Assembly: GCF_002087085.1 (NCBI RefSeq)
Contig: NZ_MWQY01000008.1
Location: forward strand, 178,251 to 198,250
Direction of reading: 5' to 3'
Length of the DNA stretch: 20,000 nt
Positions 6,001 to 12,000 of the stretch are shown piece after piece (the stretch's first letter is position 1; every line of letters begins with the position of its first letter). The position numbers are program-made.

Positions 6001-9000
6001 AAGTACTGCAGGCCATCGCCGCCGCACTACGCGAATGGAGCAAGAAAGAGGACCTTTCCGACCTTCGGATCTGGGGCTATCGTAACGTATGGTACAGGTT
6101 TCATCCCGCAGAGGCTGACTGCATCATTCCGGTTTCCCTCGATGAGATGGCAGTAATGGACAGCCTGTTTAGCAATTGTTACCTCAGCCAGGTAGATGCA
6201 TCGTTCCCCAGCCACGAGCTTAACGGGAAGTTCAGCCATCTGTCACAGAAAATATGGGTCGAACAGTTAAAAGATATTCAACTGCTCCTTGGAAAAGACT
6301 ACTTCTATCAGAATGAGAACCCGAAAATCCGTTCAAGTCATGGAATGATCTTCCTCAGGGAGATGAACCTGGAGGAGTTCCTGACATACGCCCGCAAGTT
6401 GGAAAAATCCATCGACGGAAATTTCTGAGCATGTACAAACCAGGACATCGCGGACTATCAGCTGACCACATCCTTTACAGTTTCAACTCATCCTTACAGG
6501 TCATGATATCCCAGACCTTCCGGTCCTTCGTATCTGCATAACCGTCTATATCTTCAGATTTGAGCCATTGAGAGGGACCCAGGCGGAATGTAACGGGCTG
6601 CGCTTCCCATATTCTGCACTCAGCCTCATTCTCAAAGCACTTTGACGTAGAGACACCTGTCATCGCCATCGTCATAATAATCCTTCTGCACCGCTTCCAG
6701 GATATAACCCTGTTTTTCATGAAATCTGCGGGTGGGGGCATAGAGCATGCTCGAGGAGGTTTCGATATATGTCTTCCTTCCCCCGAGCGTTCTTATGTGG
6801 TCTTCGGTCTGTTCAAGCAGCATCCCGCCGATACCCCTTCCCCTGAGCCTGTCATCGACGGCAATCCAGTAGATGTCCCAGCGGTTGAGGGTCATCGGTA
6901 TGGGGCCGTAGCAGATATACCCGGTAAGACGGCTTTTTTCCCGAGCGGTCATGAAATAGTAGCCGCTTTCATCGCCCTTTTTCAGTGCTTCCTGCACCAG
7001 CTCCAATGCCACATCGATCTCCCGGGCTTGAAAATAACCCGAGGATTCGAGAACTTCCCGTATCCGTTCGTCATCACCGGGAAGGAGCTCTTTCCTGATT
7101 ACGATATTCATCTTGTCCCACCCGAAGATGCTACAATCCGTTCAATCATCTCTTGGTATGATACACCCGCTTTCGCAGCCGCTTCAGGAAAACCCGCTCC
7201 GGGAGAAATGCAGGGGTTCGCGTTGACCTCCAGGACATGGGGCTGTCCCGTTTCATCCATCCGGAAATCAACCCGGGCATACCCGTTCAGACTGAAGAGG
7301 CCTGCGCATTCCCGGGCAATCGCGGTGAGCTGCTGCAGCATGGGATCGTCGTCGGAACCGAAATCAAAACTACGCAAGGAGTTCTGATACGATTCACAGG
7401 ATTCATCCCATTTCGCTCTGTAATCGAGAAAAGGATTGTGCTCATCTTTCCCGCTGTAGATGATCTCAGAAGGAGGGAGAACCTCCCATGAGTCTTTTCC
7501 GTCGGAGAGAAGGGCGATATTTATCTCCCGACCAGACAGAAACCGCTCGGCGAAAAAACCCCTTCCCGACGCCGCGAGGAGTTCATCGAGTTCTTCTTCC
7601 CGGGAGACCTCGACAACGGAATCCGAGGTCAAACCTGCCGAGCCGTGTTCCCACACAGATTTGACAATGTACCGCCCCGGGAAAAAAGTGCCTGCAGCAA
7701 GCCCGCCGGCCTCATACCAGAAGGGAGTCGGAATCCCCTGTCGAAGCATCATCCTTTTTGAAATTATCTTGTGAGAGGTCAGGTAGAGAGCATCCGCGCT
7801 GCAGCCCGTGTAGGGAATACCCTCCTGTTCAAGGATGTGGGGAAAGAGCGATATGAACCGGCCTTCTCCCGCAGAAGGGTCGAAAAGATTAAAAATCAGA
7901 CTGCCCCGGTGTGTTCCCAGGGTTCTCCGGAATTCAACCAGGTTCATGTCGGCCTCGAGTTCCCGGGTTTCATACCCGAGCTCTTCCAGTGCGGTGCTTA
8001 CCGTTTCCGCCTGGTAGAGGGTATCCTGATCGTCGGCGCCCGCCATGCCGGCGGGCCGGCAGAAAAGGATTGAGATTTTTCTAGAATTCATGCAGAACGA
8101 TTTTTCCATTGTGCTCTCTTTCAAGGGCGGAAGTCATGATCTCCCTGATCAGCGCTTCATAGCTTATCCCTGAAAGACGACACAGGATCGGCAGATCGGA
8201 ATCGACAGGATGAAGACCGGCGAGGGGATTTACCTCGATAAAACTGGGCCGGTTCTCCGCATCCAGCCGCAGGTCGATCCTGCCTCCGTCCCTGCACCCC
8301 AAAGCTCTCCAGGCGGCAAGTGCAAGGTCCTTGCATGCTTCTCCCAGCTCCCCATTAACCAGGGAATACTCAACCAGTTCACGGTAGTTTTTTTTCGTTT
8401 CATATGAGTAAACCACCCCCGACGACTCTCCCTGAAAAACCACTTCCATCGGCGTCAGCGCTCTTGCCCTATCGCCGGTACCGAGGACCCCCACGGTAAA
8501 TTCCCGGCCGGGAAGAAAGGTCTCCACGAGAACGGGCTGCCGGAATTCGACCAAAAGATCGCTGCAGAGCTCCCGCAGTTCCCCTTCATTGTGAACCAGA
8601 GATCTGCTGCTGATTCCCTTACCGGTTCCCTCCGCGGCAGGCTTCACGAACAGTGGGAAAGCGAGGGAATGCCCGTCCAGGTCCGAAAGGGTTTTAACCA
8701 CGATGAAATCGGGAGTCGCTATCCCCAAATTTTTAAGAATGTGCTTCGCTATCCCCTTGTGGAGGGTGATTCCGAGAACCAGCGGATCAGAAAAGGTATA
8801 GGGGATTCGATAGGCATCCAGGAGGGCGGGTATCTGGGCCTCTCTCCCCAGACCGTGCATGCCTTCAGAGATATTGAAAACAATATCCCATCGTTCACCC
8901 GCGGCGAGCTTTCCGACGAGGGATTCAATTCCTCCTATCCGGACCGGGGCATAGCCCAAAGTGCGCAGGCTTTGCTCCAGGGCATCGATTGTTTCAGGAG

Positions 9001-12000
9001 AATCCAGTTCCGCCGTCTCTTCCGGACTGTAATTCCTCGCAAGGTATTCCGCCTGCAGGTCGTAGGTGAGACCTACGCACAGTTTTTCCGGTCTTCTCTT
9101 CTCAGAGCCTTCCGACCAGAAGTCTGTAGAACTGATATCTATCGGCCTAGAGGCTGTCGTCAGGATACTCATAGGTTTTCCCTTCATAATTTCTTAGAGT
9201 CAGTTTTCCGTTAACCGTTCCCTGAATGTAGTCAGGACTAATAGGAATCTTTCCGCCTCCCCCAGGAGCATCTATGACGTAGTGGGGGACCGCGTATCCC
9301 GAGGTAAAACCCCTGAGGCTGCGGATGAGCTCTATCCCCTCTCTCACGGTGGTCCTGAAATGGGCCGAACCTGCAATGGGATCGCACTGGTAGAGATAGT
9401 AGGGCCTGACCCTGATTATCATCAGCTTATGGAAGAGATTCATCAGGGTCTCTGAATTATTATTGACCCCCTTGAGAAGAACGGTCTGACTGCCCAGGGG
9501 AATTCCAGCGTCCGCCAGACGACTGCAGGCTTCGCTCGACTCCGGAGTGATCTCATCAGGATGTGTTGCGTGAATACTCATCCACAGCGGATGGTACTTT
9601 TTCAGCATCCTGACAAGGGATTCCGTAATCCGCTGGGGCAGGACCATTGGGACCTTCGTTCCCAGCCGTATAATTTCCACATGCGGAACTGCCCTCAGAC
9701 TACTCAGAAGATACTCGAGGCTCTTCTCGGGCAAGGTCAATGGATCTCCGCCGGAGACAAGAACGTCCCGCACCTCCCCGTGGGCCCTGATATATTTCAG
9801 AGCTTCATCCCAGTCTTTCCTTCCCATAGCTCCGTTGCCGTTGCCGACGACACGTGAGCGGGTGCAGTAGCGGCAGTTAACCGAGCATGTGTTGGTTGCC
9901 AGAAGGAGGACCCTGTCGGGGTAACGATGAAAGAGCCCGGGAGCAACACAGTGGCCCTCTTCATTCAGCGGATCGACCGATTCTCCGGGGGAGGAGACAA
10001 ATTCGGCCAATCCGGGAATAACCGTCTTCCGAAGAGGCTGCAAAATATCCAGCGGATCGATAAGTGAGGCGTAGTAAGGCGTCAGCGAAAGCGGAAGCCT
10101 TCTTCCCGCAAAAACGAGTGCGTCCTTTTCATCGTCGGAAAGACAGAAGATACGCTCCAGCCCCTTCAGGGTATGGATTCTGTTCCTGAACTGCCAACGC
10201 CAGTCATTCCATTCGTCATCACGGGTATCCGGAAAATATCGAGCTCGGAAAGAGGATGATCGACGGCTGATGATGGGAAAAAGTTCAGCAGTATCCCCCT
10301 GGCTGGGTAGAACGCTGACTAGACCAGGAGGCTCCTCGTCTTCGGCAGTGGGAACCGGATCGGAGAATTCAATTTGGATTGTGTTCCTTTTTACTGAAGC
10401 AGGTTTGGTTCGGGTACAACCCGAAAAGGTGTAACCATTTTTACTGTTCATTGATTTTCTAATCCCTATATCCCGTGATAATCCATTGATTACCCGGAAT
10501 GGAAAAGAAAATACCGCAACCAGGTTGCGTCGGTAAAAGCCGATTCTGATCACCAGAAACAGACTATTTACCTACGTCTAAATTCATCTTTTTTGAAAAT
10601 ATGTCAATATTCTTGCCGTAAATAATTGCATTATTTCATTTCGGTAAATCCACTGCTTTCCTGCTGTCCGCATCCCGCAACAGACCGGCTCCTTCCGCAA
10701 ATCCCGTAAAGAAATGCCTCGCGTTCACGCCCAAGACACGGTTATCGTAACCGCCCTCCTGGACGACCAGGGTCGGAATCTTCAGTTCTCCAATCTGCAG
10801 TCCATTCCTGAAAAAATCCCCTGACCTGAGATGCCAGGTACCCGTCGGATCACCTTTCGCGGTGTCAAGGCCGAGGCAGACGATCAGATAGCGGGGCTTG
10901 AACCGTCTGACCGCGTTGAGAGCCCGGGAGAGAGTCTCCAGGTACTTCTGACCATCGACATTTTCCGGGAGCGGGTAATTGATGTTGTATCCCTTCCCTT
11001 CCCCCGATCCCCGTTCGTCCCTGAAACCGGAAAAATAGGGATAGGCAAATCGGGGATCTCCGTGCAGGGAAATGGTCAGAACATCCGGTCTTTCATAGAA
11101 AATATCCTGATTGCCGTTTCCATGATGATAATCTATGTCGAGTATGGCCGTCCTGCCGTACTGCGCAAAGCGATAAGCCGCGGCGGCGGCGGAATTGAAA
11201 TAACAGAAGCCCCCGAATGCCTTTCTCTCCGCGTGGTGTCCCGGAGGTCGGATCAGCGCATAGGCGGCCCTTCTTCCTTCGAGGATGAGGTCCGCCGCGG
11301 TCAGAACGCTGTCTACCGCTGACCTGGCGGCTTTGTAGGCATTCGCGTTCAGGGGGGTGAAAGTATCTATGCAGTAGTAACCCGCTCTGATTTCAAGTTC
11401 CTTCGGGGGCCGTGAGGTATTCCTGATCGGGAAAACATAGGGATATACAGATTTTCCGGTTCCTACGGCCGCACAGGCTTTCCTGATATAGCTGAGATAC
11501 CCTCGGTCATGGATCCGGGAGAGGACCTTCATCCCCTGATCCTTCGGAGCGAATTCGTGAAAAAGATCGGTCCTGATCAGTTCATCCAGTATCGTTTTCA
11601 CTCTGACGGGGGATTCCACGTACCCCCTCTCCCTGACATGGTGAATCTCGTGCTTCCGGTTTACAACCAGAGCGATCTGGTGGTCAGGTTTTACACTCCG
11701 GCGCACACCGATAAGCTTTCCGGAAACGTAGCGCGGCTCCCTAACCTTTACAGGATCATCCCTGAAAGAATCCGTCACCATTTTTATATACGCATCATCG
11801 CAGACATCTCTGTACTTCGTCCGGAGGATCGCCTTTATCGCCTTGCGGGCTGCTGCCCTTCGCAGGGGAGTTCCGGAACCCAGATCGTCGTACATAATAA
11901 AGGGCGGACAGGTATCCTTCGGCCCGACCGGGGTTTCATATTTTGTTCCGATTATCGGGAAAGCGCCGAAATTCTCGTAGAATCTGAGCCGGGACCGATT

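Follow-up and report, generated by a model that had tools for sequence, protein, structure and literature searches.

A conserved five-gene KamA, ATP-grasp and acetyltransferase cassette predicted to build a small N-acetylated beta-lysine peptide or amide

The window analyzed here, a stretch of 20,000 nucleotides, carries a self-contained cassette of five enzymes that would build a small N-acetylated beta-lysine peptide or amide without the ribosome or an NRPS. The proposed ribosome-independent route converts lysine to beta-lysine, forms two ATP-dependent amide bonds, and adds an acetyl group that can be removed again; this reading is given somewhat better than an even chance of being correct. 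The cassette is common to hundreds of bacterial species, and no curated family or paper describing it was found in the families and literature searched. Its genes are as follows.

9147..10451, minus strand: KamA-family radical SAM/PLP aminomutase, a predicted lysine 2,3-aminomutase (434 aa from ATG)
8081..9187, minus strand: ATP-grasp amide ligase 1 (DdlL), of the Ddl family, not itself a Ddl
7108..8124, minus strand: ATP-grasp amide ligase 2 (AG2), with a Dala_Dala_lig_C domain
6632..7111, minus strand: small GNAT N-acetyltransferase (159 aa, Acetyltransf_1)
10636..12411, minus strand: GNAT-deacetylase fusion (HDACf), a GNAT N-domain plus an acetylpolyamine-amidohydrolase-like zinc deacetylase

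Gene layout, conservation, and distribution

The survey's finding described a four-gene operon, and the four minus-strand ORFs from KamA to the small GNAT indeed overlap or abut. Depending on the start codons, the ORFs of KamA and ligase 1 share 26-41 nt and those of the two ligases 11-44 nt, and an ATGA combines the ligase 2 stop with the small GNAT start. However, the upstream GNAT-deacetylase fusion had been missed. Many genomes have this gene within the cluster, and others carry it as a fusion with the small GNAT, so the unit comprises five genes. The open frame of KamA extends beyond the ATG of the 434-aa form to a GTG at 10553. The protein atlas version of ligase 1 begins at residue 6, read as M, which would place its start at 9172, and ligase 2 likely starts at the ATG at 8091. 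The HDACf frame stays open to a TTG at 12486; its true start is likely the ATG at 12411, and orthologue starts line up at M26.

The evidence supports this operon as the second KamA-family operon of the genome, distinct from ablAB. As claimed, the ablA/ablB pair lies apart from it, on contig C21, and each protein exceeds its TIGR cut-off (AblA, TIGR03820, 768.5 bits against 525.4; AblB, TIGR03827, 290.2 against 205.1). The cell-wall Ddl is likewise encoded elsewhere (contig C45, 328.1 bits against 245.65). The reported 74% identity between AblA and a Methanococcoides protein agrees roughly with the 71-73% obtained for Methanosarcinaceae and Methanolobus records.

The genes keep their order much more often than chance would allow. 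The loci compared were selected for resemblance to a single cassette member, and most come from metagenome bins. All four genes occur together in 50 of the 80 seeded on the small GNAT (45 of the 60 with at least 4500 nt upstream) and in 20/41 seeded on ligase 1, the Ddl-like protein. The commonest order among the GNAT-seeded loci is KamA-ligase 1-ligase 2-GNAT (31/80), followed by KamA-ligase 1-ligase 2-HDACf-GNAT (15/80). No further neighbour family is conserved, the next clusters occurring in 4/42 and 5/80 loci. HDACf is in or near the cluster in just 23 of the 80 GNAT-seeded loci, and four of five further genomes searched yielded no full-length copy, which suggests an accessory component.

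Every neighbouring pair is naturally fused somewhere. KamA is joined to ligase 1 in locus L069 and in 11 of the 120 long relatives listed; a further 108 of the 120 (658-840 aa) contain only ATP-grasp Pfam domains. The two ligases are fused in loci L138 and L139. Ligase 2 is joined to the GNAT in three loci (L064, L115, L129), and Dala_Dala_lig_C occurs in 76 of 94 long GNAT relatives; HDACf-GNAT fusions account for eight loci and 16 of those 94 relatives. Where the cluster is split, its parts still co-occur in the genome. For example, the KamA-ligase 1 and ligase 2-HDACf pairs are 1.2 Mb apart in one genome (G004), and three planctomycete genomes carry unlinked orthologues. Among five genomes with a lone GNAT, ligase 1 is present in all and KamA in four, with the two adjacent in three.

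The small GNAT is found in at least 581 species genomes. The 73-row ligase 1 tree includes eleven named phyla and largely groups by phylum, with 17 label changes where shuffled labels give 39.8 on average; record titles add further groups. The earlier count of the Ddl-like protein in 43/401 Spirochaetota genomes at E<=1e-70 was reproduced exactly (25/153 genera), but the spread over many phyla and at least 581 species genomes does not fit a spirochaete feature.

The ATP-grasp ligases and the aminomutase

Each Ddl-type ligase would make a single amide bond by way of an acyl-phosphate, as the second and third steps of the route. Ligase 1 (Dala_Dala_lig_C, 1.5e-29) scores 147.5 bits on the Ddl subfamily model, against a cut-off of 243. 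Its best solved relative is the Ddl 7u56 (1.6e-25), in an alignment that starts at residue 100, and the L-amino-acid ligase 3vot matches weakly (3.1e-6). Orthologues retain the catalytic gR.D, E.NP, and loop Lys, and Dala_Dala_lig_N gives no Pfam match, leaving a substrate N-domain that is not recognisably Ddl-like. The Ser of an SDLP motif, which we take to be the Ddl acceptor-carboxylate Ser, appears conserved. Ligase 2 (Dala_Dala_lig_C, 1.6e-19; 105.3 bits on the same Ddl model) is closest to the Ddl 8evx (1.6e-17) among solved structures, has invariant K, R.D.R, and E.N.NP in 43 sequences, and is 26-29% identical to ligase 1. The Tyr after the conserved loop Lys is missing in ligase 1 and is Trp in ligase 2. 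The KamA-ligase 1 fusions suggest that ligase 1 takes the aminomutase product directly, and the ligase 1-ligase 2 fusions that ligase 2 attaches the next unit. Two ligases making one bond each would give a product of three building blocks, which could include further beta-lysine.

Alternatively, one ligase could start and the other extend oligo- or poly-beta-lysine or a copolymer, with the GNAT and deacetylase tuning the charge of the polycation. RimK and cyanophycin synthetase are polymerising ATP-grasp enzymes, and polyamine acetylation cycles pair an acetyltransferase with a deacetylase, much as the cassette combines a polyamine-type deacetylase with two GNATs. The frequent fusion of the two paralogous ligases would also fit, as would the position of KamA as the sole dedicated building-block enzyme, no racemase or other amino-acid-forming enzyme being present in the loci. 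However, both ligases are most closely related to Ddl enzymes, which form dipeptides, the ligase sequences give no sign of processivity, and the seeded loci contain no conserved primer, carrier, or export gene. Polymerisation is regarded as possible but unlikely.

In the first step of the favoured three-block route, the KamA-type enzyme would convert L-lysine to beta-lysine (3,6-diaminohexanoate), as its conserved catalytic and lysine-binding residues suggest. KamA contains LAM_C (1.1e-19) and Radical_SAM (5.1e-14) domains and scores 341.7 bits on TIGR00238 (cut-off 199.2). The claimed alignment to the solved enzyme 2A5H was recovered (2a5h_A, E 4.2e-127). The motifs CSVNCRYC, YQCD (Asp293), and VIDAPGGGGK (Asp330, Lys337) supply the radical SAM cysteines, the PLP lysine, and both lysine-binding Asp residues, and at least 95% of the 74 orthologues share the two Asp. 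The protein falls under the AblA, Glu, and Arg equivalog cut-offs, its highest equivalog score being for AblA (458.3 bits, cut-off 525.4); on the EpmB model it reaches 252.4 bits (cut-off 369.3). At the N-terminus it is extended by ~65 aa of low conservation; it lacks the Cys-rich, zinc-binding C-terminal region of clostridial LAM and AblA, and is 46-47% identical to the AblA of the same genome.

The Asp pair had been taken to specify beta-lysine. In line with this, the true AblA of the same genome has Asp/Asp, and Lys and Thr replace the pair in two glutamate-2,3-aminomutase-like controls (L144 and L145, whose best family, TIGR04368, gives 600 and 573 bits, both below its cut-off of 650). With both positions changed in the glutamate-type controls, they appear to track the substrate. 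However, an EpmB-like paralogue on contig C79 also keeps the pair, which weakens the step from Asp pair to beta-lysine. KamA might thus act on another basic substrate, such as arginine or ornithine, or make (R)-beta-lysine for a different purpose, and the product would then not be an (S)-beta-lysine peptide. The Asp pair could presumably accommodate a guanidinium or a shorter amine as well, and KamA, under every equivalog cut-off, reaches 375.5 bits on the arginine-aminomutase model. This reading is nevertheless improbable given the top score for AblA, the behaviour of the Asp positions in the controls, and a lysine 2,3-aminomutase as the only solved KamA relative.

Acetylation, deacetylation, and the likely product

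Two ligases and a GNAT beside a lysine-type aminomutase point to a beta-lysine peptide or amide, as the survey's finding had proposed. In the fourth step, the small GNAT would acetylate a free amine together with ligase 2, a partnership suggested by the ligase 2-GNAT fusions. To judge solely from the activity of the deacetylase's relatives, the site would most likely be the terminal epsilon-amino group of the beta-lysyl side chain. The small GNAT (Acetyltransf_1, 2.2e-13) has 13 invariant columns in 20 sequences and a close solved relative in 2r7h (DDE_3044, function unknown; 6.6e-39). Among curated families it scores best on RimI (43.4 bits, short of the 86.4 cut-off), and the AblB model is not among the five families listed at E<=0.01.

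HDACf combines a GNAT domain (Acetyltransf_1, 0.0023; approximately residues 26-250 of the 616-aa ORF) with a C-terminal deacetylase (Hist_deacetyl, 2.3e-72), and no NCBIfam family at E<=0.01 covers the whole protein. Its best solved relatives are the acetylpolyamine amidohydrolases (APAH) 6phr (9.1e-78) and 3q9b (1.6e-68), with 265 bits for APAH, 187-203 for two-domain HDAC6 chains, and at most 129 for other solved relatives. At least 95% of the 16 orthologues compared have the motifs RPPGHHAE, DIDYHHGNG, GLD..GDP, and QEGGY. When the N-domain was modelled with AF2 (pLDDT 78.7), the structure matched GNAT folds of the GCN5/PCAF type at a probability of 1.00. In a fifth step, where HDACf is present, its deacetylase would strip the acetyl group and its GNAT domain would acetylate a second site. 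An N-epsilon-acetyl-beta-lysyl group would resemble acetylputrescine, which represents the kind of substrate used by the nearest solved relatives of the deacetylase, and the cycle could either protect and deprotect the amine or switch its charge on and off. The product, which would most likely remain in the cytoplasm, might be a compatible solute (osmolyte), a polyamine-like cation, or something else. The osmoprotectant role raised earlier is not favoured, since ablAB is already present in the genome and the titles of many carrier records suggest non-saline sources.

The acetyltransferase and deacetylase of the operon would also suit a secreted antimetabolite of the L-amino-acid-ligase kind, acetylated for self-protection and deacetylated for activation. 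Rhizocticin and bacilysin are di- or tripeptide antibiotics made by paired ATP-grasp ligases, and phosphinothricin and puromycin undergo acetyl protection followed by late deacetylation. This is considered very unlikely, as no conserved exporter, resistance target, or regulator adjoins the genes in the 41 + 80 loci, and the uniform composition across phyla and the phylum-following tree are unlike typical specialised-metabolite clusters. A still slimmer prospect is protein modification, in which the ligases would attach beta-lysine or amino acids to a side chain or terminus and the GNAT and deacetylase would act on protein lysines. RimK and EpmA add amino acids to proteins, beta-lysine modifies EF-P in other bacteria, and the GCN5/PCAF fold matches and the RimI hit involve protein acetyltransferases. 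However, both ligases are Ddl-type, and the deacetylase resembles small-molecule APAH much more than it does its other solved relatives. The cassette genes overlap, and the cluster has no conserved candidate target gene or small ORF. Finally, a Ddl/Van-like role in making a beta-lysine dipeptide for peptidoglycan, suggested by the Ddl family membership of both ligases and the SDLP Ser, is barely credible beside a separate canonical Ddl, a ligase 1 N-terminal domain unlike that of Ddl, seeded loci with no linked Mur ligase, VanX/VanH-like gene, transferase, or flippase, and a GNAT and polyamine-type deacetylase that do not fit such a scheme.

Comparison with known systems

The predicted small N-acetylated beta-lysine product invites comparison with AblA/AblB of methanogens and many bacteria, in which a lysine 2,3-aminomutase is followed by a GNAT. 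The first-step chemistry is predicted to be alike, and that of acetylation is probably the same. However, the cassette KamA forms a separate clade below the AblA cut-off and without the Cys-rich C-terminus, and its 159-aa GNAT does not match the AblB model. The cassette also adds two ATP-grasp ligases and a deacetylase, so its end product should be larger than acetyl-beta-lysine.

The ligase part of Ngg is an ATP-grasp domain. Ngg offers a precedent for the proposed route, since it couples glutamine N-acetylation to peptide-bond formation, yielding NAGG, an osmolyte precursor (PMC8070244). Compared by this description, the NAGGN system (Ngg plus AsnO; Sinorhizobium, Pseudomonas) likewise makes a small N-acetylated peptide independently of the ribosome (PMC8070244), and the ligase 2-GNAT fusions of many genomes parallel the coupling in Ngg. 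Unlike NAGGN, the cassette uses a beta-amino acid from a radical SAM enzyme and has two ligases and a deacetylase, with no amidotransferase.

Ddl/Van ligases share with both cassette ligases the superfamily, the C-terminal catalytic domain, and the Mg/ATP and acyl-phosphate residues, whereas the latter fall far under the Ddl cut-off and have the loop Tyr absent or replaced by Trp. The deacetylase domain of HDACf aligns end to end with APAH (6phr, 3q9b, 3men) and keeps the zinc and catalytic motifs, but HDACf carries an N-terminal GNAT, in some genomes also a C-terminal one, and sits in a beta-lysine/ligase cluster rather than in polyamine catabolism. BacD/YwfE and RizA/RizB exemplify the stepwise joining of unusual amino acids by ATP-grasp ligases. 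In EpmA/EpmB, a KamA-family enzyme supplies beta-lysine to a dedicated ligase, EpmA, which is a tRNA-synthetase paralogue and not an ATP-grasp enzyme. What sets the cassette apart from these three systems is a five-gene unit that lacks an exporter and pairs acetylation with deacetylation.

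Layout of the cassette

The survey's finding described a four-gene operon, and the four co-directional minus-strand open reading frames at 6632-10451 do carry the domains that it named (Pfam, NCBIfam). The size of the unit requires amendment, since a fifth gene, encoding a GNAT-deacetylase fusion (HDACf), lies inside the cluster in other genomes. The cassette comprises:

6632-7111, minus strand: small GNAT, 159 aa (Pfam, NCBIfam)
7108-8124, minus strand: ligase 2 (AG2), second ATP-grasp protein (Pfam, NCBIfam)
8081-9187, minus strand: ligase 1 (DdlL), Ddl-like ATP-grasp protein (Pfam, NCBIfam)
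9147-10451, minus strand: KamA-family radical SAM protein (KamA), 434 aa counted from ATG
10636-12486, minus strand: open frame of HDACf, 616 aa, directly upstream of the KamA gene; likely true start ATG at 12411

Overlaps between adjacent genes span 11-44 nt, according to the choice of start codon, and the ligase 2/small GNAT junction is a common ATGA stop/start. The unit is taken to end at 6632 because a convergent plus-strand gene stops at 6428. That gene (4014-6428) encodes an 804-aa protein with a glucosamine-6-phosphate-deaminase-like region (NF002557, 190.8 bits, below cut-off) and a weak PIG-L de-N-acetylase match, and it has no conserved adjacency to the cassette in other genomes. Between the HDACf and KamA genes lie 184 nt (10452-10635), with a TTGACA hexamer at 10602-10607 and, at 10515-10529, a short hairpin that resembles a terminator and includes a T-run. 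Terminator-like sites in the region (10) are no commoner than in shuffled sequences (6.6 +/- 2.5), so separate transcription of HDACf is only a lead.

Rfam gives no match in the window at the gathering threshold, so no riboswitch or leader RNA is seen; in 20 cassette loci it detects RNase P RNA and one tRNA, nothing else. The 24 runs listed as containing the window include no RNA run and are marine, seawater, and sediment metagenomes. PADLOC assigns zero families to the five cassette proteins, and a known anti-phage defence system was set aside. Directly upstream of the cassette lies a low-GC island (12500-17500 and 19000-20000; GC 0.27-0.35 versus ~0.50 elsewhere), probably a mobile or defence island. 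Its defence-like and toxin-antitoxin-like genes encode an OLD/AriA-type AAA ATPase (12696-13997), an HTH protein (14709-15155), whose gene overlaps one of the Gp49/HigB-like type (15106-15537), and a SoFic-type Fic protein (15725-16810; PADLOC SoFic, 2.7e-119).

The source assembly, with 4.22 Mb on 79 contigs and a completeness of 97%, also bears out the separate pathways that the survey had placed elsewhere. On contig C21, a true AblA (TIGR03820, 768.5 bits versus a cut-off of 525.4) adjoins a true AblB (TIGR03827, 290.2 versus 205.1), and the canonical cell-wall Ddl is encoded at C45:51845-52870 (328.1 bits versus 245.65).

Enzymes and their predicted substrates

KamA aligns to the solved Clostridium lysine 2,3-aminomutase (LAM; 2a5h_A) with an E-value of 4.2e-127, including the radical SAM motif CxxxCxxC (CSVNCRYC) and the PLP lysine, Lys337 (DAPGGGGK), both at least 95% conserved among 74 orthologues. 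The lysine-type pair Asp293 (YQCD) and Asp330 (VIDAPGGGGK), the residues that hold the epsilon-amino group of lysine in 2A5H, is kept as the survey had reported, and both aspartates occur in at least 95% of the 74 orthologues from other genomes. Only the subfamily model for KamA-family proteins (TIGR00238) is passed, with 341.7 bits versus 199.2. The protein stays below the cut-offs of the lysine equivalog TIGR03820 (AblA; 458.3 versus 525.4), glutamate aminomutase (405.4 versus 650), arginine aminomutase (375.5 versus 600), and EpmB (252.4 versus 369.3).

The controls were two proteins encoded in genomes of the class Clostridia, with glutamate 2,3-aminomutase as their best family. They score 600 and 573 bits on the glutamate model, just below 650 and about 150 bits over their lysine-model scores. 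Both carry Lys and Thr at the Asp293 and Asp330 positions, whereas the genome's AblA has Asp at both, so the two positions follow substrate. Judged by these residues, glutamate is an unlikely substrate of the cassette KamA. The earlier proposal of beta-lysine, not beta-glutamate or beta-arginine, therefore holds for glutamate, but the Asp pair would also be compatible with arginine or EpmB-type enzymes. A KamA paralogue on contig C79 of the source genome also has both aspartates, which weakens the inference of lysine from the pair.

This third KamA-family paralogue (G000:C79:16166-17263; L048:5167-6264) has 365 aa, scores below every equivalog cut-off, and adjoins ispH and an HAD phosphatase gene; it may be EpmB-like. 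A divergent KamA-like radical SAM region, in two matched stretches, occurs in an 852-aa protein at G000:C13:45932-48490 (L049:1933-4491), which scores 150.7 bits on TIGR00238, below the cut-off, and adjoins an M23 peptidase gene.

The clostridial LAM and the genome's AblA possess a C-terminal Cys-rich zinc region, whereas the cassette KamA does not. An Asn aligns at Cys268, the protein stops near LAM residue 370, and LAM_C is matched only over positions 1-56 of 127. Cys268 and the C-terminal Cys cluster form the structural zinc site of LAM. KamA residues 1-65 (10255-10451) form a low-complexity, poorly conserved N-terminal extension, which varies from ~40 to 180 aa among orthologues and contains an 'EPP' motif in 70-95% of them across phyla. 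Lysine fermentation was set aside, since the alpha subunit of beta-lysine 5,6-aminomutase (PF09043) was not found in the 97%-complete genome, a weak negative because the control genomes gave no match either.

Both ligases contain the ATP-grasp C-terminal domain PF07478 (1.5e-29 for ligase 1 and 1.6e-19 for ligase 2), with the catalytic R.D, E.N, and loop Lys conserved in their orthologue alignments. They differ from Ddl in missing its cut-off (NF002378, 243 bits) with 147.5 and 105.3 bits, respectively, and in the absence of a Pfam match to Dala_Dala_lig_N; alignment of solved Ddl structures to either ligase begins only at about residue 95-100. A further Ddl-family match (133.7 bits, sub-threshold) lies at G000:C9:23950-24831 inside a 727-aa open frame.

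The small GNAT matches Acetyltransf_1 (2.2e-13) and contains RGRGIG, with G95 invariant; the acetyl-CoA-binding motif of GNATs is R/Q-x-x-G-x-G/A. Unlike the genome's own AblB, which gives 290.2 bits on TIGR03827, the small GNAT is unmatched by that model, which is absent from the five families listed for it at E<=0.01. A close solved relative is 2r7h (DDE_3044; 6.6e-39), a structural-genomics entry whose titles go no further than 'putative acetyltransferase' or 'putative D-alanine N-acetyltransferase'. The structure of a cassette member (2R7H) has been solved since 2007 without an attached function.

The C-terminal domain of HDACf is closest to solved acetylpolyamine amidohydrolases (APAHs): 6phr (9.1e-78, residues 291-597), 3q9b (1.6e-68), and 3men (4.7e-64). 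Two-domain HDAC6 chains reach 187-203 bits, and the remaining solved relatives at most 129 bits. GHHAE, DYHHGNG, GLD..GDP, and EGGY are conserved among orthologues; in the APAH/class II HDAC fold, these motifs provide the zinc ligands together with the catalytic His-His/Tyr residues. The N-terminal half matches Acetyltransf_1 weakly (Pfam, 0.0023) and has a conserved G.G..LY in the orthologue alignment. Its AlphaFold2 model (pLDDT 78.7) matches GCN5/PCAF and many bacterial GNATs with a Foldseek probability of 1.00, and the N-terminal half is a GNAT by alignment and model. In one locus (L075), the HDACf gene is broken by an in-frame stop within 5099-5908, which might reflect faulty assembly or a pseudogene.

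Conservation, fusions, and spread

Gene order was compared from two independent seeds in a collection with one genome per species. The ligase 1 seed yields 41 loci, with the four genes adjacent in 20 and HDACf in seven. The orthologue alignment of the small GNAT matches at least 586 stretches, at least 581 of which encode a relative. The four genes occur in 50 and HDACf in 23 of the best 80 loci; where at least 4500 nt upstream are available, the four genes are present in 45 of 60. The commonest orders in the best 80 are KamA-ligase 1-ligase 2-GNAT (31) and KamA-ligase 1-ligase 2-HDACf-GNAT (15), and GNAT stands alone in 13. HDACf, when inside the cluster, usually lies between ligase 2 and GNAT, and in Bacteroidales between KamA and ligase 1. 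All-against-all clustering of open reading frames in the 41 and 80 loci reveals no recurrent further family: no transporter, regulator, racemase, or peptidase. The few small neighbour clusters consist of unrelated genes, among them those for an ABC ATPase, an epimerase, and a sigma-54 activator, and the lone ligase 1 loci give no hint of a further conserved neighbour.

Single open frames join each neighbouring pair of the cassette. KamA is fused to ligase 1 in L069 (782 aa; Radical_SAM, LAM_C, and Dala_Dala_lig_C) and in 11 of the 120 listed among 461 long ligase 1 relatives (E<=1e-40). Another 108 of those 120, with 658-840 aa, have ATP-grasp Pfam domains only; a double-ligase make-up is confirmed for two loci, L138 (678 aa) and L139 (692 aa), where each frame has two stretches of the Ddl type. 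Ligase 2 is fused to GNAT in L064, L115, and L129, and Dala_Dala_lig_C occurs in 76 of 94 long relatives of the small GNAT. HDACf-GNAT fusions (749-812 aa) occur at eight loci and in 16 of the 94 long GNAT relatives. Fusions between every neighbouring pair tie all five enzymes to one process; on sequence grounds, the cassette enzymes are obligately associated. The fusions also suggest a split into two modules, one of KamA and ligase 1 and the other of ligase 2, GNAT, and the deacetylase. Among the listed ligase 1 relatives, an 834-aa protein with ATP-grasp and GNAT domains (P0243) may be a ligase 1-ligase 2-GNAT triple fusion. Double-length ATP-grasp proteins (P0282-P0331), several of them named Myxococcales or Polyangiales, form a large group that is only 40-44% identical to ligase 1 and may represent a sister system.

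Where the cluster is broken up, its parts still co-occur. In three planctomycete genomes where ligase 1 stands alone, orthologues of KamA (54-57% identity, E ~1e-148 to 1e-150) and of ligase 2 are encoded on other contigs. On a closed 7.3-Mb contig (G004), KamA-ligase 1 lies at 4.32 Mb and ligase 2-HDACf at 5.51 Mb. All five lone-GNAT genomes analysed have ligase 1, and four have KamA, which adjoins ligase 1 in three.

The ligase 1 tree covers Thermodesulfobacteriota, Planctomycetota, Bacteroidota, Spirochaetota, Pseudomonadota, Myxococcota, Chloroflexota, Moduliflexota, and Lentisphaerota, with one distant row each from Actinomycetota and Elusimicrobiota; titles of GNAT-seeded records add KSB1, Aminicenantes, Riflemargulisbacteria, and others. 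On a quick FastTree, phyla group together far more than chance would give (17 changes of phylum label against a shuffled mean of 39.8), with some mixing. The count of ligase 1 in 43 of 401 sampled Spirochaetota genomes (E<=1e-70) was reproduced, and these fall in 25 of 153 genera. The three largest sampled families of that phylum have none (0/50, 0/75, and 0/38), and one other family has it in 10 of 11 genomes. A recent foreign origin of the operon is not indicated, because its GC (~0.52-0.55) is near that of the left flank and its ligase 1 clusters with three other spirochaete copies.

Proposed pathway, role, and related systems

By sequence, the catalytic equipment is intact in the radical SAM/PLP aminomutase, both ATP-grasp amide ligases, both GNAT domains, and the zinc deacetylase. 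KamA would convert lysine to beta-lysine, which ligase 1 would take directly; ligase 2 would join a further unit, the small GNAT would acetylate a free amine, and the HDACf deacetylase domain would reverse acetylation on an aminoalkyl chain. The reversible acetyl group is placed on the epsilon-amine because an N-epsilon-acetyl-beta-lysyl unit has the spacing of acetylputrescine, with four carbons from the amide nitrogen to the next ammonium group. Acetylputrescine is a substrate type of APAHs.

A tentative proposal, which we regard as possible yet rather unlikely in all its parts, is that the cassette makes a new cytoplasmic class of beta-lysine-based tri-unit peptide or short oligomer. This polyamine-like cation, its charge switched by a dedicated GNAT-deacetylase-GNAT module, would occur in hundreds of mostly anaerobic or sediment bacteria from more than 10 phyla, independently of the acetyl-beta-lysine osmolyte system. 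The pathway outlined above has rivals, in which the cassette would form oligomers, use another basic substrate, make a secreted antimetabolite, tag proteins, or remodel the cell wall.

The product is a possible osmolyte. Small N-acetylated peptides act as osmolytes in other systems, and the source organism is marine, judged by the runs that contain the stretch. A purely halo-adaptive role is argued against by the presence of ablAB in the same genome, by the many carrier records from peat, digesters, and groundwater (our reading of isolate names in record titles), and by the polyamine-like deacetylase. A charge-switchable polyamine-like cation would fit the deacetylase at least as well as an osmolyte.

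Four uses of beta-lysine are known in bacteria: it is a precursor of osmolytes, an intermediate in fermentation, a modifier of EF-P, and a building block of antibiotics. The cassette suggests a fifth use, in a ligase-built, reversibly acetylated compound, by a five-gene unit that is spread over many phyla and at least 581 species genomes. None of the five proteins falls under an NCBIfam equivalog, and the public names of their relatives are generic only. A full-text literature search, part of it ineffective, found no paper on such an operon; the relevant passages of PMC3543383 and PMC11201294 deal with ablAB alone, and PMC8836040 concerns Dde_3047, an unrelated phosphatase. Since few genes make up the unit, none of its partners is missing, and natural fusions point to the order of its steps, its product could be identified directly by expression and mass spectrometry. 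The cassette would also bring two ATP-grasp ligases with new specificities for beta-amino acids. Widespread and compact, it belongs with those ATP-grasp pathways whose peptides are based on a dedicated, unusual amino acid. Its nearest functional precedent is the synthesis of NAGGN, in which, according to the passages of PMC8070244 on this pathway, Ngg not only acetylates glutamine but also makes the peptide bond.
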